In this document: one piece after another, positions 5,171 through 62,070 of the stretch | How the letters are laid out: each line of letters begins with the position of its first letter | How positions within the stretch are numbered: position 1 is the stretch's first letter | DNA from: a virus | Virus record (IMG/VR): IMGVR_UViG_3300037467_001050 | Coordinates: 58,895-122,894 of that record | DNA: 64,000 bases | Reading direction: 5' to 3' (one strand) | The notes under the pieces: generated by a model | What the model saw: the letters and a program-made list of their open reading frames with translations, nothing else | Told to the model about the DNA's origin: nothing | The model's database searches: none | Translations under genes and position numbers: made by a program

Positions 5171-5184
5171 TTGCAGGAATGCAA
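5171..5184 (+). promoter_or_regulatory. Repeated motif TTGCAGGAATGCAA (perfect copy)
   Basis: Exact match, 4 nt after a stop codon; second half-site GCAAA 19 nt later overlaps ATG 5201. Confidence 0.75.
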
Positions 5185-5200
5185 ACAAGCGGCATCTGAA

Positions 5201-5560
5201 ATGGCAAACCCCTTCACCACCGCGGCGGGGTGGCTCCTGGGCAATCCGCTCGTGAGCCACGCCGTCGTGGCCTCGGCTCTGACCGCGGCAGGGTCCGCGG
5301 CCGGGCACGTCGCCGGCATCGCCCATGCTCCGGTGATCGCGGCCGGCGTCATCTCTGCGGTCTACTACGGCCGCGAGGCCGGCCAGCTGGAGCATGACCT
5401 CAAGCATGGCACGACCTCCCACGGGGTCGTCTCTCCCTTCCTGGCGTTCGCGGGTGCCGAGTTCGGCTTCCTGTGGAGCCTCGACAACCTCCTGCAGTTT
5501 CTCGCTGCAGCTGGAGCCTCCGCAGGTGTTGCGGCGGCCTTGACCCTCACGGGCAACTAA
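5201..5560 (+). CDS. Hypothetical membrane protein (possible holin-like)
   Basis: Several hydrophobic Ala/Gly-rich segments. Confidence 0.6.
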   Translation: MANPFTTAAGWLLGNPLVSHAVVASALTAAGSAAGHVAGIAHAPVIAAGVISAVYYGREAGQLEHDLKHGTTSHGVVSPFLAFAGAEFGFLWSLDNLLQFLAAAGASAGVAAALTLTGN

Positions 5561-5604
5561 ACGGCTGCCGGATCACCGGCTCAGCCCAAGAAACGTCCCC
5601 TCCG

Positions 5605-5636
5605 AAAGCCGCCCAAACAGGGCGGCTTTTCTTTTT
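5605..5636 (+). terminator. Intrinsic terminator
   Basis: AAAGCCGCCC-AAACA-GGGCGGCTTT followed by TCTTTTT. Confidence 0.75.
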
Positions 5637-5651
5637 GGAGCAAAGAGAAAA

Positions 5652-7079
5652 GTGGCTGTTACATACCTGCACGGTGTCGAGACCATCGAGCTCGACGACG
5701 GCATCGTTCCCGTCCAGACCGTCAAGTCCTCGATCATCGGCGTGATCGGCACGGCGCCCGACGCTGATCCCGACCTGTTTCCCTTGAACACGCCGGTGGC
5801 GCTGTTCGCCAACCCGACCAAGGCGACCAAGCTCGGCAAGGCCGGCACGCTGCTCGACGCGGTCAACGCGATCTACTCGCAGGGCTCGGCCACCGTGGTC
5901 GTGATCCGCGTCGAAGGCGAGACCGGCCGCGAAGCGATGGCCAACGCCGTGGGCTCGCCGACCGCCAAGACGGGCGTGTGGGCCCTCCTGAAGTCGCGCC
6001 CGATCCTGAAGCTGATCCCGAAGATCCTGATCGCCCCGGGCCTCACCTCCGAGCGCCCGTCCGACGGTCTGGTCGACGCCACTGTCGGCGCCCCGGGTGA
6101 CGGCTACGTCCAGGCGACCACGAAGGTGGTCTTCGATCCCCCGGCCGCGGGTGGCCGGCAGGCGCAGGGCACCGTCCAGGTGGTGCTCGGTAAGGTGACC
6201 GGCGTCACCATCACTGACCCCGGCTACGGTTACGCGGCGGCCCCAGCGGCCACCGTGACCGGCGACGGCACCGGTGCCACCGTGACGACCTCGCTCGGCT
6301 TCGTCGCCAACCCCGTCGCGAAGGCCCTGGAAGCCGTGGCGCCGCGCCTGCGCGCGATCGCCCTCGTGGACGGACCCGGCACGTCCTACGAAGACGCGGT
6401 GAGCTACAGAAACGACTTCGGCTCGCAGCGCGTGATGGTGCTCGACCCCGGCGTCGTGGTCTACGACATCGAGACGGCGACCAACGTCACCAAGCCCGCC
6501 TCCGCCTACGCTGCCGGCATCCAGGCCCGCATCGACAAGGAGAATGGCTTCTGGTGGAGCTTCTCCAACAACGAGATCCAGAACATCCTCGGCCCGGCAC
6601 GCCCGGTCGACTTCATGTACGGGGATCCGGACGCGGAGGCGAACCAGCTCAACGGGCAGCAGATCACGACCATCATCCACGATGATGGTTTTAGGTTCTG
6701 GGGTCTGCGCGGCACGGGTCAGGATGCCCTCTGGGCCTTCCTGAGCGTCCGCCGCACCGCGGACATGATCTACGAGAGCCTCGAGGCGGCCCACCGGCCC
6801 TTCCTCGATCGGCCCTTCAACTACGCGCTGCTCGACGTCATCGAGAACTCGGTGAACGCCTACCTGCAGCAGCTGCGGGCCCGCGGCGCGCTGATCAACG
6901 GCACCTGCACGATCGACCCGAACGTCAACACGAAGGACACCTTCGTGAACGGCGAGCTGATCGTCGACTTCGACCTGGAGCCGCCCGCCCCGCTCGAGCA
7001 CCTGACGTTCCGCGCCCGGCGCAACCCGAACTACTACACGGACTTCATCGAGGAGTTCGTGGCGGCTACGCAGGGCTAA
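5652..7079 (+). CDS. Contractile tail sheath protein (P2 FI-like)
   Basis: YLHGVETIE, IIGVIGTAP, ILIAPG, GFWWSFSN, GFRFWG.R, PPAP.EH.TF motifs. Confidence 0.95.
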   Translation: MAVTYLHGVETIELDDGIVPVQTVKSSIIGVIGTAPDADPDLFPLNTPVALFANPTKATKLGKAGTLLDAVNAIYSQGSATVVVIRVEGETGREAMANAVGSPTAKTGVWALLKSRPILKLIPKILIAPGLTSERPSDGLVDATVGAPGDGYVQATTKVVFDPPAAGGRQAQGTVQVVLGKVTGVTITDPGYGYAAAPAATVTGDGTGATVTTSLGFVANPVAKALEAVAPRLRAIALVDGPGTSYEDAVSYRNDFGSQRVMVLDPGVVVYDIETATNVTKPASAYAAGIQARIDKENGFWWSFSNNEIQNILGPARPVDFMYGDPDAEANQLNGQQITTIIHDDGFRFWGLRGTGQDALWAFLSVRRTADMIYESLEAAHRPFLDRPFNYALLDVIENSVNAYLQQLRARGALINGTCTIDPNVNTKDTFVNGELIVDFDLEPPAPLEHLTFRARRNPNYYTDFIEEFVAATQG

Positions 7080-7083
7080 TCAC

Positions 7084-7097
7084 TTGCAGGAATGCAA
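7084..7097 (+). promoter_or_regulatory. Repeated motif TTGCAGGAATGCAA (perfect; extended palindrome CACTTGCA-GGAA-TGCAAGTG 7081-7100)
   Basis: Exact match immediately after the sheath stop codon. Confidence 0.75.
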
Positions 7098-7194
7098 GTG
7101 AACATCGTCTGACAAAGCAAACCGCTGATGGGCGGGCGCGGCCGAGTGGTCGCGCCCCGCTCGAGCGCGTCTTCGCAACAAAAAGAAGAAGAAA

Positions 7195-7725
7195 ATGGCG
7201 AACACCAACCTGCGCGACAGCGATATTCTGCGCGACTTCACCGTCTGGATCAAGGGCAACGGTAAGATGGGGACTTGCCCCAGCTTCCAGCTGCCGGAAA
7301 TCAAGATCCAGACTGAGGATTTCCGCGGCGGCGGCATGGATATGGCCGTCGAAATCCCGATGGGCGTGGAAAAAATCGAATTTGATTTTGACATGCATGT
7401 GTGGGATCCGGAGATCTTCCAGAACCTCGGCTACGATGTCGGGGCCATGGATGTGCCACTCATGTTCCGCGGCTACATGCTCTCGCCCAACGGCGCCCAG
7501 AAGAGCGTGATGATCGCGACCCAATCGCTGATCAAGGCGATCAAGCCGGGCAAGGTCGAGCCGGGCAAGAAGACCGAGATCTCGGTCTCCGTCTCCGCGA
7601 ACCGCTACGTCCACAAGATCGACACCAAGATCGTCAACTCGTTCGACGCCTTCAACAAGGTCATGATCATCAACGGTCAGGACAAGAGCTCTGAGGCGCG
7701 CCGGATCCTGGGCTTCGACTACTAA
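7195..7725 (+). CDS. Tail tube protein (P2 FII-like)
   Basis: LPEIKIQTEDFRGGGMD and ID..N....ING.D motifs. Confidence 0.93.
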   Translation: MANTNLRDSDILRDFTVWIKGNGKMGTCPSFQLPEIKIQTEDFRGGGMDMAVEIPMGVEKIEFDFDMHVWDPEIFQNLGYDVGAMDVPLMFRGYMLSPNGAQKSVMIATQSLIKAIKPGKVEPGKKTEISVSVSANRYVHKIDTKIVNSFDAFNKVMIINGQDKSSEARRILGFDY

Positions 7726-7757
7726 GATCCCCATATAATCCATCTGAAACCCAGCCG

Positions 7758-7779
7758 CCCCGCCGGTTCGCCGGCGGGG
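7758..7779 (+). terminator. GC-rich hairpin with UUCG tetraloop (pause, terminator or processing site)
   Basis: CCCCGCCGG-TTCG-CCGGCGGGG; weak U tract. Confidence 0.45.
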
Positions 7780-7814
7780 TTCGTGCTGCCAAGGTGTAAC
7801 AAGAAGAAAAGACA

Positions 7815-8087
7815 ATGTCGGGACTGACATACAAGCTGAAGTTTCCCTTCGAGCACGCCGGTGTGAACTACACCGAATTCTCGCTGCGCCGCCCCAAGGT
7901 GCGCGACTTCCGGAACTTCGCCAAGAACATCGAGCGGGATCCGATCACGGCCATGGAGGAGATCATCTCCGACCTGTGCGAAATCGACGGAAACGTCATC
8001 GCCGAGATCGACATCGAGGACTGGGGCCCGATGAAGGATTTCTTTGAGGGTTTTTTGGACAAGCTCTCGAAAAAGTCGGAGAAGTAA
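7815..8087 (+). CDS. Tail assembly chaperone (P2 gpE-like)
   Basis: LRRPKVRD, ID.ED motifs; lies between tube and tape measure genes. Confidence 0.85.
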   Translation: MSGLTYKLKFPFEHAGVNYTEFSLRRPKVRDFRNFAKNIERDPITAMEEIISDLCEIDGNVIAEIDIEDWGPMKDFFEGFLDKLSKKSEK

Positions 8088-8236
8088 TTCCGGCTGCGGT
8101 GCCAATGTTTGAACGTTGGCACTGGAATATGGAAAACATCGAGAACCTGGACTGGGAAGAGTTCTGGGCTCTCTCTGAGGGAGCGAAGCTCCTCTACAAG
8201 CGAGAAGCAGAAGCGAGAGCGCGCGGGGGTCGATGA
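7815..8236 (+). CDS. Tail assembly chaperone E+E' fusion made by a -1 programmed frameshift
   Basis: Slippery G GGT TTT TTG at 8048-8057; the -1 frame is open to TGA 8234-8236 and encodes gpE'-like FERWHWNMENIENLDWEEFW. Confidence 0.8.
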
Positions 8237-8266
8237 CCCTCGCGCCAAACTCGCCAGGGGAGCGCC

Positions 8267-11200
8267 ATGGGCCAGGAGACCACCGAACTCAAAGCAGTCG
8301 TTACCGTCGAGACCCGCGCGGAAGCGCAGATCGACCGGCTCGAGAAGAAGATCAAGTCGCTGGCGGGCGCTGCCAACTCCACCTTCAAAGCCCCGCTCGA
8401 CACCACCACCAAACAAGCCCAGCTGATCTCGAAGGCGTTCGAGAAGCACCGCGGTGACATGCAGGACTTCGGCCGCGCACAGCGCGACTGGGCCAACAGC
8501 ATCTACCGCCAAGGCAAGATGACGGTGACGCTCTACGACGAGCTCGAGAAGAGCGTCCGGAGCATGATCACCGCGCAGGGTCAACTGCGCAAGGGTGCGG
8601 ACGAGGCCAAGTTCATCCGCGCCGTCCGAACCCTCAACGCCTACGCCTACGTCTGGAACCGGCACCACGACACCTACGTGCGGAACCTGCGTCAGCAGGA
8701 TCGCCTGCAGGCCCAGATCGAGGACAAGCGGCTCTATCTCGCGCAGCGCGCCACCCAGGCCTTCGAGCGCGGTGAGAAGCGCCGGGCCGATAGCGCCGCA
8801 GCTCTCGACCGGCAGCGCTCGCGCGCCTTCCTGGCGGCGGAGAATGAGAAGGAGAGTGCGCGCCGGGCACTCGAACGCCAGCGATCGCGCGCCTACATCG
8901 CGCAGATCCGCACCGAGGAGGCTGCCGGTCGCAAGGCGGAAGCCAACAAGATCCGCGAGCAGCTGCGCGCCCAGCGTGAGGCGGAGAAACTCCGTCGTGC
9001 CGACGAGCGGGCAAAGCTCAAGGTTGCCGCTGAGCAAGAGAGCGCCAGACGCGCCCTCGAGCGGCAACGGTCGCGCGCCTACATCGCGCAGATCCGAGAG
9101 CAGGAGCGGCTTGGCCAGAGAGCCGAAGCGGAGAGGGTCCGCGAAGCTCTTCGCCAGCAGCGCATGCAGGAGAGCTCTCGTCGCGCGATCGAGCGCCAGC
9201 GGTCGCGCGCGTACATCGCCGAGATCCGAGAGCAGGAGCGGCTCGGCCGAAAGGCTGAAGCCGACAAGATCCGCGAGAAGCTCCGACAGGAACGCTCCCA
9301 GGAGAGCTCTCGCCGAGCCCTGGAGCGCCAGCGCAGCCAAGCGTACATCAAGGAGATCCGGGATCAGGAGCGTGCCGGCCGAAAGGCAGAGGCCGATAAG
9401 ATCCGCGAGCAGTTGCGCCAGCAGCGCTCCCAGGAGAGCGCCCGCCGGGCTTTGGATCGGCAGCGCACTCAGGCCTACACGCGCGAGCTGCGCGAGCAAG
9501 CCGGAGCTGAAGCCAAGAACGCCCGCTACATCCAGCAGTTGAAGAACAACTCCTGGATCATGCAGATGCGCCAGGACGAGCAGGCGCGCAGGGCGCAGGA
9601 GCGCGCCGCTCGGTCCTCGTGGCGCCAGTTTGGCGTCGACGGCAAGCAGTCCCTGCGCGGGCTCGGCATCGGCACGCAGTCGATCGGCAGCGCGCTCAAC
9701 CGCACGGGCGTCATCGCCATGTACGGTGGCGCAGCCGCCGGTGCCGCATCGGCCGCCGCCCAGCGCGGCGTGCGCTCGCGCATGAGCGTTGAGGCTGCCG
9801 AGACCGAGCTGCGCATGTTCGGTGGTGAGCTCGCCCGCCCGGGCAAACCCGCCAAGCCGATGACGGCTGCAGACGTCGCCGGGATCCGCAGCGAGTGGCT
9901 CGATGAGGCCGCAATCGGCTCAGGCGTCTCGGCCACGACCGGCCTCAACGTCCTCACCGAGGTGATCAAAGCCGGTATCGATCCGGCGAAGTCGCGCGAA
10001 ATGACCGAGCTCGTCCTCGGAGCCTCCGCCGGCATGGACATGAACACCCGGGAGACCACCCGCGTGCTCGGACGTGCCGCGACCAACATCCCCAACGTCG
10101 ACAGCGCCCGCATGAAGAAGATCATGACGGGCATGGCGATCGCCGCCGCAGAGACCGCGGCCGACCCGGACGAGATCGTGTCCGGCATGGATCGCGGCAT
10201 GGGCGCGCTCTCCTACGGCATGTCGCCCGAGGATCTTGCGGCCTGGGTCGCCGTCGGTCGCTCGACCGGCATCCAAGCGGCAAAGTCCGGCAACTTCATC
10301 GCCACCCTGCTCTCGAAGGGCGTCAACGCCAAGAACCTGCGCGGCAAACCCGGCAGGGATATGGATGATGCTGCCCGGATGCTCGGCATGGGCAGCGCCC
10401 GCGGCATGTCCCGGCGCGCCTCGGCTGACCCGAACCAGTTCCTTGAGGACATGTTCGAGAAGGTCGAGAGCATGAGCGTCGACAAGCGCGCCAAGCTCTC
10501 GAACCTCATGGGCGGCCAGGAGTGGGACGACGAGATCCTGCAGATGAAGCAGGGTCTCCAGAAGCTCAAGGAAGTCCGCGCCGCCATGAAGGACGAGCGC
10601 AACAAGAACTTCCTCGAGGACAACAAGGACCTCAAGAACAACTCGCTGCGCGGCCTCTGGGCTCGCATGCGAGCGCGCTTCGGTCTCCTGTGGGAGACCT
10701 TCGGTGATGGCTTCACGAGCACCTTCGAGGAGGTCTCGCGCTGGTTCATCATCAGCGGTCGTGCGGTGAACCTCGGTGGTCTTCGGACCATCGGCGCATC
10801 GTTCATGACCGGACTTGTGAATGGTCTCGGGTTCGAGAACTGGACCGCGCTGCTGAACAAGTATTTCAACGGCGGCCAGTTCGACTGGGGCGACATCAAC
10901 GACAAGGTCCAGCGCTTCGCCAAAGGCTTCGGCAAGGGCCTCAAGGCGGTCTACGACAACCTGCAGTCGATCCTCGGGATGGTGCCCGGCTCCGGCAAGA
11001 TGGACGCCGAGTCCCTCGGTGAGATGACCGCCAAGCTCGTCGGGTTCGCGCTCGGCGTGCAGGCCGGAAAACCCGCCTGGGATCTGCTCGGCATCGTCAA
11101 GGACGGCCTCATTGCCCTCGCGGGCGGCGTCATCTTCCTCAACGGCGCGCTGGGCCTGCTCGGGCTCGGCGGGATCAAGGGTCTCGGCGGCAAGGCGCTC

Positions 11201-13339
11201 GGCGTACTCGGCGCTCGCACCTTCGCGGGCGCAGCTGGTGCTGTCGGCTCGGTTGCGATCGGCGAAGCTCTGGGCACCGTCGGTGTCGGTGCAAGTCTCG
11301 CGGCCATCGCCGCTGGCGGCATCCTGATCGCCGGTCTCGCGGCCGGCGTGGCGGCCATCGCCGTCACGATCATGAACTGGGACGCGATCAAGGAGTGGTT
11401 CAAGCCCTATCAGCAAAAGGCGCAGGGCAACCTCACCGACAAGGAGTTCCAGGACAATCAGGGTCTGGCCGAAGGCCTCAACGCCGAAGCCGACCCGCTC
11501 GCCAGGGCCATCGGCCGGTGGCTCAAATCGTGGTTCACCAAGGACGCCACACCGGCACAGCGCCGGCAGATGTCGTTCTCCGGTGATGGCGACTTCCGCT
11601 CGATGCTCCATTACGCGAGCTTCGAGGCCTCCGGTCTCAGCGACCTGAAGCACTCCGTCGACAAGATGGGCGCCAAGTTCGAGCTTGCCGCCCTGACGGG
11701 TCCGGGCATCGCAGCTGGCTCTCACGCCATGCTGGGATCAACAGGCACCGGAACCGGCAGCGGCAGCACCAGCTATGGTCTGCCGCAATACTCGATCCCA
11801 AACTCGGATCCGGCCCAGCGCTACGGAAAGCGGTTCTTCTCGGTCCCGGGCGGCCTGTTCGACGGTAGAGGTAACCCGTCGGGTATCGTCGGGTACGGCG
11901 CCAACCCTGGAGCCTACAAGCCGTTCCTCGACTACATCGCCGGCACCGAAGGTACGGCAGGTGGCAAGAACAACGGCTACGATGTCACGCTGGCCAACGG
12001 CAAGCTACTACCGGGAGGTAAGGAGCAGGATCTGACCAAGATGACCTTGGATCAGATCGACGCCATGCAGACGGGGATGCTGAACAACCCGAACAACCGC
12101 TGGAATTCTTCCGCGGCGGGTCGTTATCAGATCGTCCGCAAGACCCTGCGCAATCTTCGCCGCCAGCTCGGGCTCAAGGGCAATGAGCTGTTCGATGAGG
12201 CGATGCAGGACCGGCTCGGCGCGACGCTCGCCCAGCAGCGCGGTGCCAACGGCTCGCTTGGATCTGAGTGGGCTTCCCTGCGGGGAGGCAAGCTCTCCCA
12301 AGCGATCGCGATACTCGGTCAAGTGCCGAAGGACGCATCAACCACGCCCGGAGCTCGCCCGGCCGATGCGGTCTCAGGTCTCGACCAGTTCGAAGGTCTG
12401 CGGCTGAAGAGCCGTGAGGCGATCGCCGGCGGGGCTACGGCTCTCGGCATCACCGATCTGGCTCGTCAGGCGCAGGCGAACCTGCCTGGCGGTGTTGCGC
12501 GGTTCTCGTCGTTCAACGACGCCTACCATCACGGCGCGAACCCGAATAGCAAGCACACGCAGGGCCTCGCCTTCGACACATCGCTCAACGATCCACGGCA
12601 GCACGCTGCCGCGGCCGAAGCGATGCGCGAGAAGCTGCGGGCAGCCGGCCTCGACGAGAACGCCTTCAAGGTCATCGACGAGTACGCGAACCCCTCGGGG
12701 CATGCCACCGGCGGTCACATCCACACGCAGTTCAATACCAAGGAGGCGGCCCAGAAGTACCACGACTACGTGGCGGCTCTGGACCAGAAGGCCAAGGCAG
12801 TCGTTGCCTCGAACAAAGTCGACGGTGCCGACGGCATGACCTCCACAGGATGGAAGTCGGCTGGATGGAAGCAGGAGAACGGCGGACCGTGGATCAACAA
12901 GGCGACCGGCCAGGAGGCCTCTCCCGAGAAAGCCGCCGAGCTCAACAAGAAGATGGCGGACTGGGATGAGCGCAAGAAGAGGATGTTCGGTCGGGGTCGT
13001 CCGCGGACCCTGGCTGACGACGGCTTCACCGGCGTGCCTTTTGGGGCAAGCAAGGAGCTGATCGACAAGGCGAAGGACGCGGCGAACGGTGGTGGCGCTG
13101 CGGCGACCGCCAACGGCGCCCCGAGCTCCGGTGCCGAGCGCATGATCAAGAACGTGCCCGCTCCGTCGGTCGGCGGCGGTCAGGGCGGCGGCGGCGGTGG
13201 AAGCGCTCCGCAGATCCACGTCACCCAGCACATCAACGGCTGGGAGAAGTCGCCCAAGGAAATCGCCGACATGTCGCAGAAGCACATCACCGAGGCGTGG
13301 AACCACCCGAACTTCGACCTCGAGCCAGGACTCGGCTGA
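8267..13339 (+). CDS. Tape measure protein with C-terminal lysozyme-like and peptidase M15-like domains
   Basis: 1690 aa; helical repeats; TP901-type core; FLDYIAGTEG...SSAAGRYQI lysozyme motif; SKHTQGLAFD...GHIH Zn-peptidase motif. Confidence 0.9.
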   Translation: MGQETTELKAVVTVETRAEAQIDRLEKKIKSLAGAANSTFKAPLDTTTKQAQLISKAFEKHRGDMQDFGRAQRDWANSIYRQGKMTVTLYDELEKSVRSMITAQGQLRKGADEAKFIRAVRTLNAYAYVWNRHHDTYVRNLRQQDRLQAQIEDKRLYLAQRATQAFERGEKRRADSAAALDRQRSRAFLAAENEKESARRALERQRSRAYIAQIRTEEAAGRKAEANKIREQLRAQREAEKLRRADERAKLKVAAEQESARRALERQRSRAYIAQIREQERLGQRAEAERVREALRQQRMQESSRRAIERQRSRAYIAEIREQERLGRKAEADKIREKLRQERSQESSRRALERQRSQAYIKEIRDQERAGRKAEADKIREQLRQQRSQESARRALDRQRTQAYTRELREQAGAEAKNARYIQQLKNNSWIMQMRQDEQARRAQERAARSSWRQFGVDGKQSLRGLGIGTQSIGSALNRTGVIAMYGGAAAGAASAAAQRGVRSRMSVEAAETELRMFGGELARPGKPAKPMTAADVAGIRSEWLDEAAIGSGVSATTGLNVLTEVIKAGIDPAKSREMTELVLGASAGMDMNTRETTRVLGRAATNIPNVDSARMKKIMTGMAIAAAETAADPDEIVSGMDRGMGALSYGMSPEDLAAWVAVGRSTGIQAAKSGNFIATLLSKGVNAKNLRGKPGRDMDDAARMLGMGSARGMSRRASADPNQFLEDMFEKVESMSVDKRAKLSNLMGGQEWDDEILQMKQGLQKLKEVRAAMKDERNKNFLEDNKDLKNNSLRGLWARMRARFGLLWETFGDGFTSTFEEVSRWFIISGRAVNLGGLRTIGASFMTGLVNGLGFENWTALLNKYFNGGQFDWGDINDKVQRFAKGFGKGLKAVYDNLQSILGMVPGSGKMDAESLGEMTAKLVGFALGVQAGKPAWDLLGIVKDGLIALAGGVIFLNGALGLLGLGGIKGLGGKALGVLGARTFAGAAGAVGSVAIGEALGTVGVGASLAAIAAGGILIAGLAAGVAAIAVTIMNWDAIKEWFKPYQQKAQGNLTDKEFQDNQGLAEGLNAEADPLARAIGRWLKSWFTKDATPAQRRQMSFSGDGDFRSMLHYASFEASGLSDLKHSVDKMGAKFELAALTGPGIAAGSHAMLGSTGTGTGSGSTSYGLPQYSIPNSDPAQRYGKRFFSVPGGLFDGRGNPSGIVGYGANPGAYKPFLDYIAGTEGTAGGKNNGYDVTLANGKLLPGGKEQDLTKMTLDQIDAMQTGMLNNPNNRWNSSAAGRYQIVRKTLRNLRRQLGLKGNELFDEAMQDRLGATLAQQRGANGSLGSEWASLRGGKLSQAIAILGQVPKDASTTPGARPADAVSGLDQFEGLRLKSREAIAGGATALGITDLARQAQANLPGGVARFSSFNDAYHHGANPNSKHTQGLAFDTSLNDPRQHAAAAEAMREKLRAAGLDENAFKVIDEYANPSGHATGGHIHTQFNTKEAAQKYHDYVAALDQKAKAVVASNKVDGADGMTSTGWKSAGWKQENGGPWINKATGQEASPEKAAELNKKMADWDERKKRMFGRGRPRTLADDGFTGVPFGASKELIDKAKDAANGGGAAATANGAPSSGAERMIKNVPAPSVGGGQGGGGGGSAPQIHVTQHINGWEKSPKEIADMSQKHITEAWNHPNFDLEPGLG
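9038..9500 (+). repeat. 132-bp (44-aa) tandem repeats in the tape measure gene
   Basis: ES(A/S)RRA(L/I)(E/D)RQR units start at 9038, 9170, 9302 and 9434; a further copy starts at 8852. Confidence 0.85.
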
Positions 13340-13423
13340 TCACGACAACGACCCGCGCGGGGACCTCTCCGCGCGGGCCCACCACCCGAACGAGAGCCGG
13401 GATCAACCCGGCCGGAGGTGCCT

Positions 13424-13894
13424 ATGGCCGACACGCTCCTGAGCATCGGCAAGAACTTCTTCTACTCGCCCAAGCCCGGCGAGGAGACCCCGAACTATCA
13501 GGCCCTGACCCGCGACCTCAACTGGACGTGGACGGCCCAGCCGCGGCTCTCGCGCGAGAACGCCAACCAGTTCACCGGCATCGGTGAGAAGCGCGCGATC
13601 GTCGAGGGGCGGCTCTACCCGCACATCTTCGGCGGCCTGAAAACCCTCGACGCGATCGAGGCGACCGGCGACGAGGGGAAGCCCGTGCCGCTGATCCGCT
13701 ACTTCCGCTTCACCAATCCTGTCGAATACATCGGCGAGCTGGTCGGCCTCTACGGCATCGCCCGCCTGCGCCGACAGGAAACCAAGATTAATTCTGGCAA
13801 CGTGCCGATGGCTGTCGATTTCACCCTTGAGCTGATCCAGTTCGGCGAGGACTCAGCCAGCACGTCGCCAGACGAATTCCTGAGGCTCGGCTGA
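13424..13894 (+). CDS. Phage tail protein (P2 gpU-like)
   Basis: WTAQPRL, QFTG.G, G.L.P motifs; follows the tape measure gene; GGAGG RBS. Confidence 0.85.
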   Translation: MADTLLSIGKNFFYSPKPGEETPNYQALTRDLNWTWTAQPRLSRENANQFTGIGEKRAIVEGRLYPHIFGGLKTLDAIEATGDEGKPVPLIRYFRFTNPVEYIGELVGLYGIARLRRQETKINSGNVPMAVDFTLELIQFGEDSASTSPDEFLRLG

Positions 13895-14121
13895 TGGCTA
13901 AGCCCTACATCACCCAGATGTACGACCGGCTCGATAAGATCTGCGAGCGGCGCTACGGCATCTACGACTCGAAGACCCACCAGCACGTCTGGGACGCCAA
14001 CCCAGGGCTGGTCAGTCACGGCATGCTGCTGCCGATGGGCATGGCCCTCAAACTGCCGCCGCTGCCGACGCCGAACACCGACACCACGCCGGTCATCGAT
14101 CAGATCCGCCTCTGGGACTGA
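13894..14121 (+). CDS. Tail protein X (P2 gpX-like, LysM-like)
   Basis: DRLDKIC.RRYG, DANPGL, LP.G..LKLP, IRLWD. Confidence 0.9.
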   Translation: MAKPYITQMYDRLDKICERRYGIYDSKTHQHVWDANPGLVSHGMLLPMGMALKLPPLPTPNTDTTPVIDQIRLWD

Positions 14122-14147
14122 TCCAATCCACCCCTTTAGACCAATCC

Positions 14148-14176
14148 AGGTCGCCCCATCCGGGCGGCCTTTTTCT
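14148..14176 (+). terminator. Intrinsic terminator
   Basis: AGGTCGCCC-CATCC-GGGCGGCCT followed by TTTTCT. Confidence 0.65.
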
Positions 14177-14190
14177 CTGCGTGAGGACCC

Positions 14191-15321
14191 ATGCCTGTCG
14201 GCTACACGCCGATCTTCCGGATCGAACAAGAGGGGATCGACATCACCAGCCGGTTCAACGACCGGCTCACCGAGATCGAGGTGACGCTCACCAACGGCCA
14301 GGGCCAGCAGGACACCTGCGAGATCACCCTCGATGACCGCGAGTGGAAGATCGCCAGCCCGACAGTCGGGCGCAAGCTCGAGATCTATCTCGGCTACAAG
14401 GAGGTCGGCCTCGCCCAGCAGAACGTCTTCACGATCAAGACGGTCGAGTACCTCGGGCCGCCGCGCTCGATCAAGATTACCGGGACCGCCACCGACTTCA
14501 TCGGCACGCTCAAGCAGCCGCGGGTCAAGGAGTATGAGGGCAAGACCCTCAAGGAGGTGATCGAGAGCATCGCCAAGGAGGCGAACGTCACCGCCATGGT
14601 CGAGCAGGGGCTCGGAGAGATCCGGGTTCCGTTCATGAACCAGACCCAGAGCTCAGTCCACCTCCTGCAGGAGCTGGAGCGGCGCTACGGCGCCATCGCC
14701 CAGTTCGACAGCGGCAAGCTGATCTTCATCCCCCGCGACGCCAACACGACCGCCAACGGCATCTCGCTTCCGGCGCTGCTGCTGAAGCCCGAGCACCTCG
14801 CCAAGTGGTCTGTCCGGCACGACAAGCGGAACGACTTCACCGGCGCGCGGGGCGCCTACATCGACCCGGACACGCACCAGCCTGTCTGGATCGAGGAGCA
14901 GAACCCCCGGGCCGAGACCGATCCCGAGTACGGCCGGCCGGAGAAGAACCCCTACCGTTTCCCGAAGCCGTTCGTGTCGGAAGAGGAGGCTCGGGCCGGG
15001 CTCAAGTCGGCCATCTCGACGATGAACCGCTCGCTCGGCGAGTGCAATCTCGTCCTGTCCAAGGGCGATCCGTGGATCCGCGGCAACCAGCTGACGCTGA
15101 TCTCCGGGATGCGCGATGGCATCAACGGGGTCTATATTTCTGAAACCGTAAAACACACATACACGAAAGGCACAGGTCTGCTCACGACCATCATGGGCAA
15201 GCCGCCCGGCGGCGAGACCTCGCTCGATAACGGCGCCGGCTCGGACGAGAAGGTCTTCAGCCCAAAACCCGGTGAGAAAATGGGTGAGCGGTTCATCCCG
15301 CCCACCTTCGACAACACATGA
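14191..15321 (+). CDS. Baseplate hub/late control protein (P2 gpD-like)
   Basis: DITSRFNDRL, DTCEITLDD, NQTQSSVHLL..L..RYG motifs. Confidence 0.9.
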   Translation: MPVGYTPIFRIEQEGIDITSRFNDRLTEIEVTLTNGQGQQDTCEITLDDREWKIASPTVGRKLEIYLGYKEVGLAQQNVFTIKTVEYLGPPRSIKITGTATDFIGTLKQPRVKEYEGKTLKEVIESIAKEANVTAMVEQGLGEIRVPFMNQTQSSVHLLQELERRYGAIAQFDSGKLIFIPRDANTTANGISLPALLLKPEHLAKWSVRHDKRNDFTGARGAYIDPDTHQPVWIEEQNPRAETDPEYGRPEKNPYRFPKPFVSEEEARAGLKSAISTMNRSLGECNLVLSKGDPWIRGNQLTLISGMRDGINGVYISETVKHTYTKGTGLLTTIMGKPPGGETSLDNGAGSDEKVFSPKPGEKMGERFIPPTFDNT

Positions 15322-15329
15322 CCGGACGC

Positions 15330-15343
15330 TTGCAGGAATGCAA
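15330..15343 (+). promoter_or_regulatory. Repeated motif TTGCAGGAATGCAA (perfect copy)
   Basis: Exact match upstream of the endolysin; second half-site AATGCAAATG overlaps the start codon. Confidence 0.75.
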
Positions 15344-15365
15344 GCCAACCGGCGGAGGAATGCAA

Positions 15366-16538
15366 ATGACCATGCTGACCAGCGAGGCGCTGCGCCGCAT
15401 CGCCCCGTCGGCGCGCGCTGACATCGTCGCCGCCCTGATCGCGGCCGAGCCCGAGATGCGTGCGGCCGGCATCACCGCCAACGAGCGCCGCCTGCGCCAC
15501 TTCATCGCCCAGACCGCCTGTGAGAGCGCCGGCTTCCGCCATCTGGAAGAGGGGCTCTCCTACACGGCTGAGCGCCTGCATGCCGTGTGGCCGAAGCGCT
15601 TCCCGACTGTCGCCTCGGCGCGCCCCTACGCGCGCAACCCAGAGAAGCTGGCGAACAAGGTCTACGGCGGCCGTCTGGGTAACACCCAGAGTGGCGACGG
15701 ATACAAGTACCGCGGTGGCGGCCTGATCCAGACCACCGGCCGCGACAACTACCGGGCGGCCGGCCACGAGCACGACCCCGAGACGGTCCGGACGCCGGCC
15801 GGCGGCGTCGCTGCTGCCATCGAGTTCTGGAAGCGCAACGGCCTCAACATCATCGCCGACCGCGACGACATCGTGGCTGTGACCCGCAAGGTGAACGGCG
15901 GCGAGAACGGTCTTGCGGAGCGCCGGAATTTCTACCGGCTCGCCTGCAAGTACATCGTGCCGGTCTCCGACGAGGTCGAGGACGGTTCCGAGGGTGAGAC
16001 CCGCGCCCCGGCGCCCGCCGACCTCGCTCTGTCCGCCGGCAAGATCAAGGCCCTGCAGGAGCAACTGCTGCAGCTCGGCTACGCCCAGATCGGCCGGCCC
16101 GACGGCGTCATGGGCTCGAAGACCATCGCGGCGATCTCCCAGTTCCAGGCGGAGAACGGCATCGAGGTCAACGGCCGCTTCGACGAGCAGACGCAGGAAC
16201 ACCTCTACGAGGCCAGCCCCCGGGTCACGAACTACGCCGACCCGAAGGAGAAGGGCAGCAAGATCACCAAGCACGCCGAGACGATGATGAAGGGCGCGCT
16301 GGGTCTGATGGGTGCCACCGGCTTCAGTGCCGCGGCTGACCCGCTGTCGCAGATAGAGGCGGCCAAGGGCTACCTCGACCGCATCAAGTCAGTGATGGCG
16401 CCGTTCCACGCGATCCAGGAGTTCGTGACCGGCCACGTCTGGCTCGTCGCGATCGCCGCCGCGCTCGCCGTCTACCTCTACGGACGGACCATCGCCCACC
16501 ACGACGCCGACAATCACGCAACTGGAAAAACGGCGTAA
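15366..16538 (+). CDS. Endolysin: GH19 glycoside hydrolase, peptidoglycan-binding domain and C-terminal hydrophobic segments
   Basis: RHFIAQTACES, YRGGGLIQTTGRDNY, VTRKVNGGENGLAERR; LQEQLLQLGY...DGVMGSKT..AI..FQ. Confidence 0.92.
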   Translation: MTMLTSEALRRIAPSARADIVAALIAAEPEMRAAGITANERRLRHFIAQTACESAGFRHLEEGLSYTAERLHAVWPKRFPTVASARPYARNPEKLANKVYGGRLGNTQSGDGYKYRGGGLIQTTGRDNYRAAGHEHDPETVRTPAGGVAAAIEFWKRNGLNIIADRDDIVAVTRKVNGGENGLAERRNFYRLACKYIVPVSDEVEDGSEGETRAPAPADLALSAGKIKALQEQLLQLGYAQIGRPDGVMGSKTIAAISQFQAENGIEVNGRFDEQTQEHLYEASPRVTNYADPKEKGSKITKHAETMMKGALGLMGATGFSAAADPLSQIEAAKGYLDRIKSVMAPFHAIQEFVTGHVWLVAIAAALAVYLYGRTIAHHDADNHATGKTA

Positions 16539-16550
16539 GGGATCCCCGAA

Positions 16551-16934
16551 ATGCTCAGCAAGCTCAAAGACTTGCTCGCCGGGTTGATCCCCGGCGGCAC
16601 GGCCGTCACCGCGATCTGGAACTTCGTCACCTCGACCGTCGGCATGGTGCTGATCGCCAGCACCATCGCCTTCGTCACCGGCTACCACCTTCGGGCGGAG
16701 AAGGCCGAGCTCGACGACCTGCGCCATCAGGTGCTGGTGTTGAAGACCGACAACGAGCTGTCCGAGAACGCCCGCAAGCTGGTCGAGCGCCAGTCGGCGA
16801 GCCTCGAGGCGAAGCTCAAGTCCAACCAGGGGAGGGTGGCTGCTCTGCAGGCCGATCTCGCCAAGCGCGCACCGGCTCGCAAGGCCTGCGGGCTGACCGA
16901 GGACGACGCGCGCAAGCTGCGGGAGATCCAGTGA
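16551..16934 (+). CDS. Inner-membrane spanin (Rz-like)
   Basis: N-terminal TM segment and coiled coil; follows the endolysin. Confidence 0.7.
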   Translation: MLSKLKDLLAGLIPGGTAVTAIWNFVTSTVGMVLIASTIAFVTGYHLRAEKAELDDLRHQVLVLKTDNELSENARKLVERQSASLEAKLKSNQGRVAALQADLAKRAPARKACGLTEDDARKLREIQ

Positions 16935-17806: not shown

Positions 17807-17807
17807 T

Positions 17808-51746: not shown

Positions 51747-52212
51747 GAGCCACTCCGCGACTGAAACTCCTCTTAGGCCAACGGCTCTTCTTCTTGGTCT
51801 CCACCTCGGCCTCGACGTCATCTCCCCGGCTCTTCGCCGTGATGCGTCGCCTGTAGTCTTCCTGGGCCCTGGTCAGTCGGCGGAGCTTGGCGATCTCGGC
51901 CACGTCACCGTGAACCGCGTTCAGCTTGCTCTCGCCCTTGCGCCCGGTGGTCTTCCGGGCGTGACAGACCTTGTGCTTGGCCTGGATGGCCTCGTTGTCG
52001 TTGGCAGCAGGGATCGTGTCCTGCTTCTCAGGATCCCATCCCCGCAGCTGGAGCGCGGGGACGTGATCGAACTGAGTGTCGCCACCGACCTCGAGCGGCT
52101 CACCACAGGCCGCGCACCGCCCCTCCTGACGGATCACCGTGGCGAGCTTCGCAGAGCACGGGATCGCCTTTCTGAACCCAGCAGGAGGGGCCGGAACCTC
52201 GTTTGCAATCAC
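51571..52212 (-). CDS. HNH endonuclease
   Basis: RCAACG, FDHVPAL, KHKVCHARKT; the 3' extension overlaps the next gene. Confidence 0.8.
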   Translation of the reverse strand: MIANEVPAPPAGFRKAIPCSAKLATVIRQEGRCAACGEPLEVGGDTQFDHVPALQLRGWDPEKQDTIPAANDNEAIQAKHKVCHARKTTGRKGESKLNAVHGDVAEIAKLRRLTRAQEDYRRRITAKSRGDDVEAEVETKKKSRWPKRSFSRGVARATSTTGSQDRDRSSDEKSRRRGLSLRDDNKKSKGAFPLRRKMAQRRDRENSEDGVPE

Positions 52213-52225
52213 ACCGCCGTCCTAC

Positions 52226-52239
52226 TTGCATTCCTGCAA
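52226..52239 (-). promoter_or_regulatory. Repeated motif TTGCAGGAATGCAA (perfect copy)
   Basis: Exact match; preceded by an inverted TTTGCATTTTTT half-site. Confidence 0.75.
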
Positions 52240-52267
52240 GCGGTCAAGCGGAAAAAATGCAAACGGA

Positions 52268-53674
52268 TCAGGCCGCCTTGGCTGCCCGCTTCGCATCGCG
52301 CTCCTTGCGCCAGGGCGCGTCCTTCTCCCAATCGCCGGCCATGATCGAACCGTATGGCCGGATCTCGTCGACGATCTCGGCGAGGCCGTACTTCTCGATC
52401 TGGGCGCGCACCGCCGCGGCGTCCTTGTAGGCCGACGGCAGCTCGGAGTGGTCCGGGATCCCGCAGTAGGACCGGATGTCGAAGCCGCGCGCCTTCAGGT
52501 CGGCGAGCTCCTGCGTCAGAGCATCCGGGCCGCCCTGTGCCAAGTGCTGGGTCCGGGACAGGTTTCGGCCGGCCCCGTGTGGCGCGAAACCCAGCGAGCC
52601 CTTGTGGTCGCGGTGCTCGGCGATCAGGATCGGCTGGCTCATGTTGAGCGGGATCAGCGTGTTGCCGACGTCGTCAGGCGAGAAGCCCTTCCACGACGGG
52701 GTCGCGCCCTTGCCGTGGTAGAACAGTCCGTCAGACTTCCGGAACACGAAGTTGTGCTCGTTCCAGAACCGAGCCGTCACGCGGTTGCCGAGGCGCGCCG
52801 CTGCCATGTCGTGGATGGCGTAGTGGCTGTCCCGGGTCCACTGCCTGACCCACTGCAGCGCGTCCCAGTAATCCCGTCCCTCCTGCGAGTTGGCGTCGAT
52901 CCAGGCGTTGTGGCTCGGAACCCGCGGAGCGACGATCCCGGTGTGGCGCTTGGCCACCGCCATGCCGAGCTTGTAGAGCTGAGCGCCCAGGCCGCGCGAG
53001 CCGTGGTGGGTGACCAGCGCCAGATGCCCGGTGCTCGCCAGCTTGCCGACGTAGGCGAAGTGGTTGCCGTCGCCCTGTGTGGCGAAGTGGAACTTGGCGA
53101 AGTCGCCGAGCGGCTTGAGGAAGGGGTTCTCGGCCGCCTTGGCCCAGTAGTCTGGCAGGGCCACGTCCATCTTGCGCGGGCTCTTGGGCGAGACCGGCCC
53201 GAAGTGGGTCACAGCCTCGACCGCATCGAGCAGCCGGCCAGGATCATCCTCGCGCCGGAACACTGAAACCGCCATCGAGCAGCAGATGTCGGCCGAGTGG
53301 AAGCCGGGGTGGATCGCGTCCTTCGTTGCGACCGCGCCGCCGACAGGGATCGTCCCGGGCTGCGAACCGGACGGGCAAGCGTCGGGCATGATCGCGCCGG
53401 CGACGATGGTGGGCACCCGCATCAGGGCATCCATGTGGGCGTTCACGGCCTCGAGGTTGGCCCGCTCACCGTCGTTCTCCGCGTCGAGGAAGACGCCGTA
53501 GGGTAGGGCGTTCGTGCGCGCCGTCAGCTCCACCGGCACCAGCGTCTGAAGGTGCTCGAAGATCGCCTGCTCGGTGGCGCCGGCCGCCGCCATCTCATTG
53601 GCCTTGGCGATGCCGGCCTTGAACCATCGGCCCGGCTGGAAGCCCCAGGCCATCAGCGTGTTGCCGTCGATCAT
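52268..53674 (-). CDS. rtcB: RtcB family RNA ligase
   Basis: MPDAC, IPVG, ADICCSM, GDGNHF, HHGSRGLG, HNF, PHGAGR, ELPSAYKD. Confidence 0.95.
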   Translation of the reverse strand: MIDGNTLMAWGFQPGRWFKAGIAKANEMAAAGATEQAIFEHLQTLVPVELTARTNALPYGVFLDAENDGERANLEAVNAHMDALMRVPTIVAGAIMPDACPSGSQPGTIPVGGAVATKDAIHPGFHSADICCSMAVSVFRREDDPGRLLDAVEAVTHFGPVSPKSPRKMDVALPDYWAKAAENPFLKPLGDFAKFHFATQGDGNHFAYVGKLASTGHLALVTHHGSRGLGAQLYKLGMAVAKRHTGIVAPRVPSHNAWIDANSQEGRDYWDALQWVRQWTRDSHYAIHDMAAARLGNRVTARFWNEHNFVFRKSDGLFYHGKGATPSWKGFSPDDVGNTLIPLNMSQPILIAEHRDHKGSLGFAPHGAGRNLSRTQHLAQGGPDALTQELADLKARGFDIRSYCGIPDHSELPSAYKDAAAVRAQIEKYGLAEIVDEIRPYGSIMAGDWEKDAPWRKERDAKRAAKAA

Positions 53675-57368: not shown

Positions 57369-57382
57369 TTGCTTTCCTGCAA
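57369..57382 (-). promoter_or_regulatory. Repeated motif variant TTGCAGGAAAGCAA
   Basis: One mismatch; flanked by TTGCATTTT upstream and by AATGCAAATG on the start codon. Confidence 0.7.
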
Positions 57383-60081: not shown

Positions 60082-60409
60082 CCTTCACCTTCGTGGCGTG
60101 GAGCCGTTCGGTGTCCGAGAGGCGGCGCGTTGCGCGGTAGTCGAACACGCCGGGCGAGATCCGCTTCTGCGAAGGGATCAGGTACCCGACATCGACCGCC
60201 CGCTTCACAGCCAGGGCGACGCCGTTGATCGCCGAGGCGTGCTGCACCTGGACGTCAGTCGGGTCCGCGAGATTGCTCGCGTCCCGATCGAACTGGAGGT
60301 CGCCGGTGTGGTAGACCACCACGTCGCCCTCACGCGCCTTCTCGAACCAGTTGACGAAGTCGGCGAGGGCGCCAGCCCCCGCCTCGAGCCGTGTCACCCT
60401 CGTCGCCAT
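60065..60409 (-). CDS. Hypothetical protein
   Basis: F..W...A..GD..VYH.G.L..DR pattern. Confidence 0.6.
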   Translation of the reverse strand: MATRVTRLEAGAGALADFVNWFEKAREGDVVVYHTGDLQFDRDASNLADPTDVQVQHASAINGVALAVKRAVDVGYLIPSQKRISPGVFDYRATRRLSDTERLHATKVKDAALV

Positions 60410-60411
60410 GA

Positions 60412-61020
60412 TCAGTCCTCGAAGGTCTCTTCGACGAGGCGAGCGGCGATCGCCGCGGCGGCGCCGATGTTCTCGATGCCGCGCACGAGCTGCGAGACCA
60501 CGACGCGCTTCTCGAAGGCGTCGGGATCCTCCATGTCGTCGAAGGCACCGGTGTAGGGCTCGAACACCCGCTCGCCGGCCTCGATAGGCTTGTCGGCCTG
60601 CGCATCGAACGGGCGGCCGAAGCCATCGATGATGCGAGTCTCGCTCGCCGGTTCGTCGGCAGGAACGTCGATCCGCTCGCCGCCCCGGTAGACGCCGTCG
60701 AAGATCACCTTTGGCTTCTCGCCGTTCGGGCCGAGCGGTAGCGTGTCGACCAGCATCTGAGTGAGGCGCTTACCGAATGCGGCGTGATCTTCGGCGGAGG
60801 CATGCGAACCCGGCGGGGTCACGTCAGCCGGGATCTGCAGGCCTTCGGCGATCTCGCCCAGGCAGACGCCGGGCGGGCAGCCGCAGGACTTAACCTCTTC
60901 CGCTGCCTCCCCAGCGAGCTGTGCGGTGTCGGCCGCCGCGATGGCATCGAGGATCATCTTCAGGCCTTCGTTGTAGCCGCCCAGGCCGAGGCCGCTGCGG
61001 TCATGGATCTGAGTTTGCAT
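60412..61020 (-). CDS. Acidic hypothetical protein
   Basis: AGGA RBS; MQTQIHDRS. Confidence 0.6.
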   Translation of the reverse strand: MQTQIHDRSGLGLGGYNEGLKMILDAIAAADTAQLAGEAAEEVKSCGCPPGVCLGEIAEGLQIPADVTPPGSHASAEDHAAFGKRLTQMLVDTLPLGPNGEKPKVIFDGVYRGGERIDVPADEPASETRIIDGFGRPFDAQADKPIEAGERVFEPYTGAFDDMEDPDAFEKRVVVSQLVRGIENIGAAAAIAARLVEETFED

Positions 61021-61037
61021 TGTATGGTCCTTTTCCC

Positions 61038-61460
61038 CTACGCCGCCGCACGCAGCGTTTGCTTTCCTGCAAGTGCCCGGGCACGAGTTCTTGCGCCAAC
61101 GATTGCCTTGAAGCCCGGGTAGTTGAGGTTCTCTTTCTGGGTTCCCCATTTTAGGTTCCCAGGCCAGTTGTGAGATCCATCTTCGTCGTCATGCATCACA
61201 ACTGCGCCCGGAAAAGGTTTCGGGCCGTTGAACGCTTCGCAGACGAGGATGTGGACCTTGTAGGTCTTGCGCTTGAACATGAAGTGGAAGCGCTTCCCGT
61301 CCTCCTCCCAATCACCGTACCGCGGCTTCCCTACGACCAGCTTGAACCCACCTTTCGGCATCCGCTGCTCGTAAGGATCGATCCGTACTCGGCCCCACGA
61401 GGAGGCCGAGAGACCGGGAACGGAAGGAACGGGCTTCCAGATCTCGGGTTCGGTGAGCAT
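61038..61460 (-). CDS. NUMOD4-HNH homing endonuclease
   Basis: EIWKPVP....Y/L.ASSWGRV, VHILVCEAFNGP.P, H.DED..N...NL.WGT.KEN. Confidence 0.88.
   Translation of the reverse strand: MLTEPEIWKPVPSVPGLSASSWGRVRIDPYEQRMPKGGFKLVVGKPRYGDWEEDGKRFHFMFKRKTYKVHILVCEAFNGPKPFPGAVVMHDDEDGSHNWPGNLKWGTQKENLNYPGFKAIVGARTRARALAGKQTLRAAA
61059..61072 (-). promoter_or_regulatory. Repeated motif variant TTGCAGGAAAGCAA
   Basis: One mismatch; lies in the last codons of the HNH gene, upstream of 60412-61020. Confidence 0.6.
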
Positions 61461-62017
61461 CAGCCCCGCCACTCCATGGCGAATGGGATGTCATCGTCTA
61501 GGTCGTAGCCACCGCGACCACCGCCCGAGCGCAGACCACCGCCGCCCGATGACCGCCCACCGCGGTCATCCCGGCGATCGTCGCGACCCCGGCCGCGATC
61601 GTCGTCCCGGCCCCGGCCGCGCCCGCCGCGGTCATCGTCGCTGTCACCACCGCGCCCGCCACCCTCGGAACCGCCGGATAGGATGTTGATCTCGCCGCGG
61701 AAGGGGCCGACGACGATCTCTGTCGAGTAGCGCTCGACACCGTCCTTCTCCCACTTGCGGGTCTGCAGCTGCCCCTCGACGTAGAGCTTGGTGCCCTTCG
61801 TCACGTACTGCTCGACGACCCGCACGAGGTTCTCGTTGCGCACGACGACCGTGTGCCACTCGGTCTTCTCCTTGCGCTCGCCGGACGCCTTGTCCTTCCA
61901 GCTCTCGCTCGTGGCGAGGCGCAGGTTGGCGACCTTGTCGCCGCTGCCGAACGTGCGGACATCCGGGTCAGCGCCCAGGTTGCCCACCAAAATCACCTTA
62001 TTGACCGACCCAGCCAT
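61460..62017 (-). CDS. ssb: Single-stranded DNA-binding protein
   Basis: [41 protein letters not shown]. Confidence 0.98.
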
Positions 62018-62056
62018 CTCGGCTCCTTCCGATTTGCATTTTGCCTACACGCCCGT

Positions 62057-62070
62057 TTGCAATCCTGCAA
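62057..62070 (-). promoter_or_regulatory. Repeated motif variant TTGCAGGATTGCAA
   Basis: One mismatch; AAAATGCAAAT at the 19-nt spacing, upstream of ssb. Confidence 0.7.

Follow-up and report, generated by a model that had tools for sequence, protein, structure and literature searches.

In the mycobacteriophage L5, more than 20 copies of an asymmetric 13-mer are found in promoters and short intergenic spaces, where their orientation correlates with transcription and where reversal abolishes repression (PMC9283540). In phage SPbeta, an element predicted in silico, SPBRE, was later shown, with the help of chromatin affinity purification coupled to sequencing (ChAP-seq), to be a binding site of the master repressor MrpR (PMC10516654). 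Oriented repressor arrays of this kind, represented by the L5-type stoperators and SPBRE, are already known; they have not been described for the phage group considered here. The present analysis concerns a stretch of 64,000 nucleotides (hereafter the window), corresponding to bases 58895-122894, the second half, of one 122,894-bp virus record (IMG/VR record IMGVR_UViG_3300037467_001050; G+C 64.6%), and a short element, TTGCAGGAATGCAA, that recurs at its gene junctions. We consider it about an even call that the element forms a genome-wide array of operators and roadblocks for a phage-encoded repressor, most likely one with a CI/LexA fold, which would bind the copies. Coordinates refer to the window unless the genome is named.

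Among described systems, the cluster A stoperators, represented by those of L5 gp71 and the TipsytheTRex repressor (PMC9283540), are the closest precedent. Both arrays have over 20 copies scattered across promoters and short spaces between genes; in both, orientation tracks transcription, the phage is temperate, and sites occur in the early as well as the late arm. The stoperator is, however, an asymmetric 13-mer read by a monomeric protein with a helix-turn-helix (HTH) and a Stoperator domain, whereas the site described here is a quasi-palindrome of 14-20 bp and its candidate reader has the CI/LexA fold, which normally forms a dimer. The present array also differs in belonging to a 120-kb myovirus of an alphaproteobacterial host and in being known from sequence alone. 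By analogy, it would work like the cluster A stoperators yet is not a member of that system: its site is quasi-palindromic and its repressor is from a different family. An earlier, sequence-only reading of the window had proposed a polar operator network with these stoperators as its closest precedent, and this proposal is supported by the restriction of the element to phage DNA, by its two promoter registers, and by a co-occurring CI-type repressor with a conserved recognition helix.

Lambda-type CI offers a further comparison, since it has the same two-domain repressor architecture, a pseudo-palindrome of about 14-20 bp that covers the -35 box or spacer at promoter copies, and a copy upstream of the repressor's own operon. 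Lambda has six sites in two clusters, whereas about 37 copies extend over 123 kb here, mostly outside promoters and with strict polarity, and the catalytic Ser and Lys are not uniformly conserved. Like the present element, SPBRE is repeated at numerous promoter and intergenic regions in a temperate phage of more than 120 kb, but MrpR has a tyrosine-recombinase fold, its roughly ten bound sites all belong to promoter regions, and its phage infects a Firmicute; in the phage studied here, an ordinary integrase is the only protein of the recombinase family that was found. The start-associated sequences of cluster K (PMC3203893), to which the sequence-only reading had also likened the element, are oriented short repeats near some start codons of temperate phages, with their function open. 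This analogy did not hold up: the cluster K sequences keep a fixed short distance to the start codon and include the ribosome-binding site, whereas here the gap between element and start codon ranges from 0 to more than 45 nt, a separate Shine-Dalgarno (SD) sequence is present, and some copies lie upstream of the transcription start.

Copies, orientation and conservation

A pattern search of the window for TTGCAGGAATGCAA at up to two mismatches returned 15 copies (eight perfect, six with one mismatch and one with two), reproducing exactly the copies, mismatch classes, coordinates and strands that had been read from the sequence, against a chance expectation of 0.25 copies and a maximum of two in dinucleotide-preserving shuffles. 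Five copies (5171-21050) lie on the plus strand and ten (32128-62057) on the minus strand. The whole 122.9-kb genome contains 37 copies at the same threshold, spaced about every 3 kb throughout, virion genes included. A position weight matrix (PWM) built from these 37 copies gave bimodal scores, with 39 sites at 16.5 or above and none between 12 and 16.5. The PWM scan added one weaker window copy, TTGCTTGAATGCTA, at 46394-46407 on the minus strand (score 20.1), which was absent from the initial list and whose centre is TT, as in the consensus typical of the related phage BDU-MI-1, versus the AG of this genome.

The strands of the copies are arranged in blocks, with 16 minus-strand copies in the leftward region of the genome (1-33 kb), ten plus-strand copies in the rightward region (35-83 kb), and ten minus-strand copies from 83 to 123 kb. 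A single plus-strand copy (genome 2005) is located inside the leftward block, just upstream of the lone plus-strand repressor gene. The orientation bias noticed in the window therefore holds beyond it, as 37 of the 37 genome copies are co-oriented with the local genes. Together, the block-wise strands and the reversed copy at the lone reversed repressor gene indicate that orientation tracks local transcription and not the direction of replication or packaging. Every copy lies at a gene junction, typically starting 1-50 nt past a stop codon and finishing 0-40 nt short of the following start codon, which extends to the whole genome the boundary location reported for the window, and early and late genes are both marked, again in agreement with the original description. 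In the commonest arrangement, the element is followed by a separate SD sequence and then by ATG, and the commonest class of element-to-start gap is 10-16 nt (13/37 copies here and 8/29 in BDU-MI-1).

The conserved unit exceeds the 14-mer and reads roughly C-R-Y-[14-mer]-A-Y-G, an extent of about 20 bp that spans positions -2 to +17. It is a quasi-palindrome whose arms TTGC and GCAA (TTGC-N6-GCAA) are placed one helical turn apart, so that polarity comes only from the GAA centre and the flanks. The asymmetric centre G7-A8-A9 contains its most conserved bases, position 15 is A or G in all 37 copies, and a Y-G dinucleotide is enriched 9-10 nt upstream.

Among cultured phages, the closest relative is Bradyrhizobium phage BDU-MI-1 (KY940711.1, 121,342 bp), which infects B. 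diazoefficiens USDA110; its primase is 50.7% identical, and it has about 54 of about 160 proteins in common with this phage. Further relatives of about 120 kb are present in IMG/VR. Relatives were collected by means of the primase protein. A megablast search of 20 kb against cultured phages gave no match, tblastn with DnaE gave distant matches only, and an exact-word scan of IMG/VR returned only singletons in unrelated contigs, at chance level. A literature search for the word and its variants retrieved unrelated primers only, and no literature on the biology of BDU-MI-1 was found. BDU-MI-1 carries 29 copies of TTGC[T/A][T/C]GAATGCAA, of which 28 are co-oriented with the deposited gene strands and the remaining one lies in an unannotated gap. 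Among the collected loci, all 26 with at least 50% primase identity carry copies (2-11 each), and those with at most 43% identity (n=23) have essentially none, with a single one-mismatch match (in L143); no alternative dispersed repeat was found in the distant relatives that lack the repressor described below. The array is thereby conserved across a clade with only about 40-65% protein identity.

The invariant core of the clade is TTGC-NN-GAATGCAA(A). At positions 5-6, this genome has AG throughout, and TT, AT, AC and AA are mixed within each relative; the idea that these two positions form a lineage code for immunity specificity was discarded, since TT, AT and AC occur side by side in single genomes of relatives. 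In one lineage (L120), the arms form a perfect 6+6 repeat and polarity is still absolute. The lone reversed operons of this phage and of BDU-MI-1 carry their own reversed, co-oriented copies, and several promoterless junction copies are retained as such across lineages.

An integrated member of the clade, about 122 kb long, is present on contig NZ_VSTH01000051.1 of B. hipponense aSej3, bounded by an integrase gene at contig 2.9-4.1 kb and a tRNA-Met gene at about 124.8 kb, and flanked by host genes (an MFS transporter on one side, a periplasmic binding protein and MoeA on the other). Since an integrase gene and an integrated prophage flanked by tRNA-Met and host genes are found, the clade is temperate. 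A search of the B. hipponense genome (8.8 Mb) for exact matches to TTGCNNGAATGCAA gave 14, every one of them on the prophage contig, with nothing in the remaining ~8.65 Mb, and a reversed-word control gave no match. This confinement indicates that the element is, to judge from this genome, private to the phage and not a host regulon site; a similar density in the host chromosome, which the sequence-only reading had named as contrary evidence, is not what this comparison revealed.

Promoter registers and the candidate repressor

Phylogenetic footprinting of the primase-to-ssb junction in 19 lineages revealed the element, followed by 4-5 variable bases and a conserved TGnTAATGC. This stretch can be read as a sigma-70-type promoter with TTGCAT, a 17-bp spacer and an extended -10 box, with the SD sequence and ATG about 20 nt further on. 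At a second junction (52226; position 27088 in BDU-MI-1, where the promoter stretch spans 27078-27117), about ten lineages share TTGAC(T/C), 17 bp, TAnnAA, 6 nt and ATG, with the spacer filled exactly by the 14-mer; the deposited coding sequence of BDU-MI-1 starts at 27115. Positions 3-4 of the TAnnAA hexamer vary freely (GG, CG, TC, CC, AG, TG), which identifies it as a -10 box and not a Shine-Dalgarno sequence, and the ATG sits where a leaderless transcript would begin. In both registers, -35 plus spacer and spacer only, the element is upstream of the inferred transcription start, and the coverage of core promoters by one word in two registers is the behaviour expected of an operator. In addition, a TTGAC hexamer is found 1-2 nt upstream at 19 of 164 distinct sites, versus about 0.2 expected.

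TA occurs at -10 spacing in only 6/37 copies here and 4/29 in BDU-MI-1 (background about 4%), which means that the element does not itself act as a promoter element, and roughly 70% of the copies simply stand at junctions and lack promoter features. A generic sigma-70 promoter was rejected for most copies, as there is no fixed 16-18-bp register and two registers are used; the commonest element-to-ATG gap of 10-16 nt is too close for any sigma-70 geometry. Sigma-54 (-24/-12), extracytoplasmic function (ECF)-type and CII-type (TTGC-N6-TTGC) geometries, judged by eye, misfit the flanks or the start-codon distance. In a genome this rich in GC, a promoter scan with the E. coli consensus is uninformative. 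Some copies are closely preceded by a conserved CTTGAC, yet an SD sequence instead of a -10 box follows. Several early copies come after terminator-like hairpins, and two copies just before the window (genome 49610 and 58422) lie between a stop codon and a strong intrinsic terminator, behind a major capsid-like gene and a 767-aa tail gene, respectively.

The candidate reader is a CI-type repressor of 255 aa encoded outside the window (genome 2100-2867, plus strand), which matches PHROG transcriptional repressor families and combines an N-terminal Cro/C1 HTH with a C-terminal S24 (LexA-like) domain. No sequence-level relative was found in the PDB, and its fold was therefore predicted with AlphaFold (mean predicted local distance difference test score, pLDDT, 80.8), giving a helical N-domain, a disordered linker and a beta-rich C-domain. 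The best PDB matches are the lambda-186 hybrid repressor, lambda CI, 186 CI, LexA and UmuD' (top Foldseek matches 7jvt, 3bdn, 2fjr and 1jhf). CI-type dimers usually read quasi-palindromes of 14-20 bp with arms 10 bp apart. Each of the 22 motif-bearing sequences whose flanks are long enough (21 loci, and BDU-MI-1 with ARQ95258) encodes an ortholog of the repressor, always on the other strand from the primase, and none of the 23 motif-poor loci does; among 50,697 cultured-phage records, the family occurs only in BDU-MI-1.

The orthologs are about 40% identical overall and have a hypervariable linker, and their near-invariant parts are the recognition helix, (A/S)PST(I/L)LR(L/I)(L/M)N, and the GSG(Y/F)P(I/V)P that follows it. 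A recognition helix that hardly changes is in keeping with a conserved DNA target. Furthermore, a copy of the element lies upstream of the repressor operon in every lineage, on the reversed strand of that operon, and in relatives this site has a second GAATGCAA box 4-5 nt after the first. Some lineages have A or T in place of the candidate catalytic Ser (within MPDDS), and several have R in place of the candidate Lys, so that RecA-dependent self-cleavage may not be the route of induction. The repressor is the only recognisable DNA-binding protein that was found among the approximately 54 proteins common with BDU-MI-1; ten small proteins of this set showed no nucleic-acid-binding domain in Pfam and PHROG scans.

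If this protein is the reader, the repressor would occupy all ~37 sites in a lysogen. At sites over the -35 box and/or the spacer, it would block initiation as at a classical operator, as their position suggests. At lone junction sites, by analogy with the stoperators, bound repressor might halt or impede escaped polymerases, or keep the 120-kb prophage silent in some other way.

Weighing the proposed operator array against other explanations

Several points weigh against an array of repressor operators and roadblocks. The co-occurrence of repressor and motif is confounded by common descent, the S24-like catalytic Ser and Lys are not conserved in all lineages, which makes the induction route questionable, and the true reader could be among the many functionally unassigned proteins common with BDU-MI-1. 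Because CI-type dimers normally recognise symmetric sites and require no polarity, they do not obviously need the 100% polar orientation or the asymmetric G7-A8-A9. For the ~70% of copies without promoter context, a roadblock role would be assigned purely by analogy, and two late copies lie directly upstream of terminators, where a roadblock seems redundant. A more specific version, in which a CI-type repressor has been built into an orientation-locked network of 30-40 sites, with junction copies acting either as a direction-dependent stop unlike that of the L5 monomer or as a DNA operator combined with an mRNA leader signal, is a tentative idea that we think possible but doubtful.

Polarity, the upstream Y-G, the CTTGAC copies followed by an SD sequence, and the terminator-adjacent copies keep two other explanations alive. 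According to the one, which appears unlikely, the word is an RNA-level cis element, read single-stranded on polycistronic mRNA near the ribosome-binding site, where it might dock a translational regulator, mark the RNA for RNase processing or stability, or serve as a standby site, as proposed for start-associated sequences. Strict co-orientation with transcription would be automatic for an RNA signal, the element-SD-ATG arrangement at 10-16 nt is the commonest, promoterless junction copies are conserved across lineages, and the phage encodes an unusual RNA biology (RtcB, a Thg1-like enzyme and a ProQ fusion). However, the distance from element to start codon varies, the copies that sit at two conserved promoters (one of them leaderless) lie upstream of the inferred start, and a TTGAC -35 box at a fixed 1-2 nt offset is left unexplained by an RNA signal. 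Moreover, there is no conservation of structure, no Rfam family was matched anywhere in the window, and the ProQ/FinO-bL12 fusion was rejected as an RNA-level reader because it has no counterpart in BDU-MI-1. The other explanation, which is distinctly unlikely, regards the ~20-bp site as a promoter for a phage-modified host RNA polymerase or an unrecognised phage polymerase, with a T7-like start at about position 15. The span from -2 to +17 and the purine at position 15 in 37/37 copies would suit a single-subunit polymerase promoter, as would the early copies that follow terminator-like hairpins, the lone divergent operons with their own co-oriented copy, and a copy density like that of T4 or T7 promoters. 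Against this, no sigma-70 region 2 domain was found in the genome, and no T7-type RNA polymerase match (PF00940) at E<=1, a search in which the control set also matched nowhere and was thereby uninformative. The large unassigned proteins of 692 and 761 aa have no counterpart in BDU-MI-1, both early and late genes are marked, unlike temporal promoter classes, two copies would fire straight into terminators, and host sigma-70 geometry would put the start codon too close in most copies.

A hairpin in RNA (or in non-template DNA) with a GGAA loop of the GNRA type, bound like lambda boxB by an antiterminator or another protein, had been offered by the sequence-only reading as the alternative to an operator network, and is now hardly credible. 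The consensus of this genome can indeed fold as a 5-bp stem with a GGAA loop, but the predicted stability is -3.7 kcal/mol here, -2.6 to -2.8 in relatives and 0 for the frequent TTCAA variants, compared with -7.9 for boxB. When the covariation of the arms was examined, no compensatory change emerged within the genome or across lineages: arm mismatches in the genome are all one-sided and uncompensated (six C4.T11, five A5.A10), 32 sites across lineages have T in place of A at position 5 and 31 of these still have T at position 10, and cross-lineage pairing amounts to 61/116 versus 71.9 expected. The flanks that could extend the stem pair only as often as base frequencies predict, and the loop is mostly TGAA (64 of 116), followed by GGAA (31), CGAA (18) and AGAA (3). 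It is also highly improbable that the copies are recombination hotspots or cassette boundaries (PeSL-like or attC-like) whose orientation is that of the cassettes. Between two phages with only ~54 of ~160 genes in common, junctions of shared with non-shared genes carry sites slightly more often (27% versus 16-18% of junctions), but this excess lacks significance (Fisher p = 0.14). Orthologous junctions of conserved genes such as primase-ssb retain their copies, and sequence conservation is far tighter than homology-driven shuffling requires.

If the operator and roadblock array is real, genome-wide oriented repressor arrays would not be peculiar to actinobacteriophages and SPbeta, and would have arisen again, around a CI/LexA-fold repressor, in large temperate myoviruses of nitrogen-fixing rhizobia. 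Its interest lies in a reader with a CI fold, in a near-palindrome that is nonetheless strictly polar and in a rhizobial host, and it raises the question of how a nominally symmetric dimer site acquires strict polarity relative to transcription. Since BDU-MI-1 and B. diazoefficiens USDA110 are both cultured, they provide a tractable test case. The 20-bp word can also serve as a clean marker to find and delimit prophages of the clade in Bradyrhizobium genomes, and may predict the immunity group, because all lineages seen have the same core site and recognition helix.

Individual copies and neighbouring genes

Four of the five plus-strand copies in the window lie a few nucleotides past a stop codon. 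The perfect copy at 5171-5184 is located 4 nt past the stop of a 210-aa gene and upstream of a small gene, which in turn is followed by the tail sheath gene, and that at 7084-7097 lies 4 nt past the tail sheath stop, with the tail tube gene 97 nt further on. The perfect copy at 15330-15343 begins 8 nt past the stop of a 376-aa gene, which matches 'protein D' of BDU-MI-1, and is followed by the GGAGG-AATGCAA-ATG of the next gene. A perfect copy at 21050-21063 marks the junction 8 nt past the stop of a 62-aa gene. At 17808-17821, also a perfect plus-strand copy, the element occupies the -35-plus-spacer register, with TTGCAG, 17 bp and a TG-extended TAGGGA.

The remaining copies are on the minus strand. 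Perfect copies occur at the junctions 32128-32141, upstream of a small gene lying ahead of the DnaE-type polymerase gene, and 40918-40931, upstream of a gene of ~140 aa. One-mismatch copies lie at 34406-34419 (TGCTA arm), upstream of a 228-aa gene, and at 61059-61072, upstream of a gene of ~200 aa. The two-mismatch copy at 37577-37590 follows closely on a terminator-like hairpin with a T-run, and 3 nt downstream of it an 81-aa gene begins with ATG. Two further one-mismatch copies have a TTCAA arm, that at 44941-44954, where a hairpin is impossible and a GC-rich stem-loop follows, and that at 46760-46773.

Three minus-strand copies stand in promoter context. The promoter at 52212-52247, after RtcB, comprises TTGACC, a 17-bp spacer that contains the perfect copy 52226-52239, TAGGAC, 6 nt and GTG, a start codon that is unusual for a leaderless mRNA. 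The one-mismatch copy at 57369-57382, upstream of the RecE-like exonuclease gene, shows TTGCAG, 17 bp and TAGAGA, followed by ATGCAA-ATG. In the promoter at the primase-to-ssb junction (62028-62070), the one-mismatch copy 62057-62070 gives the -35 box (TTGCAG) and the spacer, and the -10 box is TAGGCA; 18 relatives have TTGCAT and TGnTAATGC at this place. Downstream of the copies at 15330, 32128, 34406, 40918 and 57369 a 'second box' recurs, with AATGCAA placed between a purine-rich SD-like run and the ATG, and the spacer between SD sequence and start codon of many genes echoes the 3' half of the element.

The genome encodes a DnaE-type polymerase, a class II ribonucleotide reductase, thymidylate synthase, dCMP deaminase, RtcB, a Thg1-like enzyme, a primase/helicase, a RecE-like exonuclease, a tyrosine integrase, rIIA, a replication initiator, a DNA methyltransferase, the CI-like repressor and contractile-tail genes. 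The tyrosine integrase gene, a marker of a temperate lifestyle, is located at 38397-39638 on the minus strand. The DnaE-type (Pol III alpha) polymerase of 1161 aa (28163-31648, minus strand) has no BDU-MI-1 counterpart by tblastn, and the replication module appears to differ between the two phages. The RtcB RNA ligase (52268-53674, minus strand) and the Thg1-like tRNA-His guanylyltransferase (35924-36766, minus strand) occur together in one phage, which suggests a tRNA repair or counter-defence module. Outside the window, Pfam searches identified a single protein (genome 27794-28804, minus strand) in which a ProQ/FinO domain (residues 20-120) is joined to the C-terminal domain of ribosomal protein bL12 (216-252). 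A second lone opposite-strand gene in the leftward block (genome 24440-25072, plus strand) encodes a T5orf172/MUG113-domain protein and has the same reversed orientation in BDU-MI-1.

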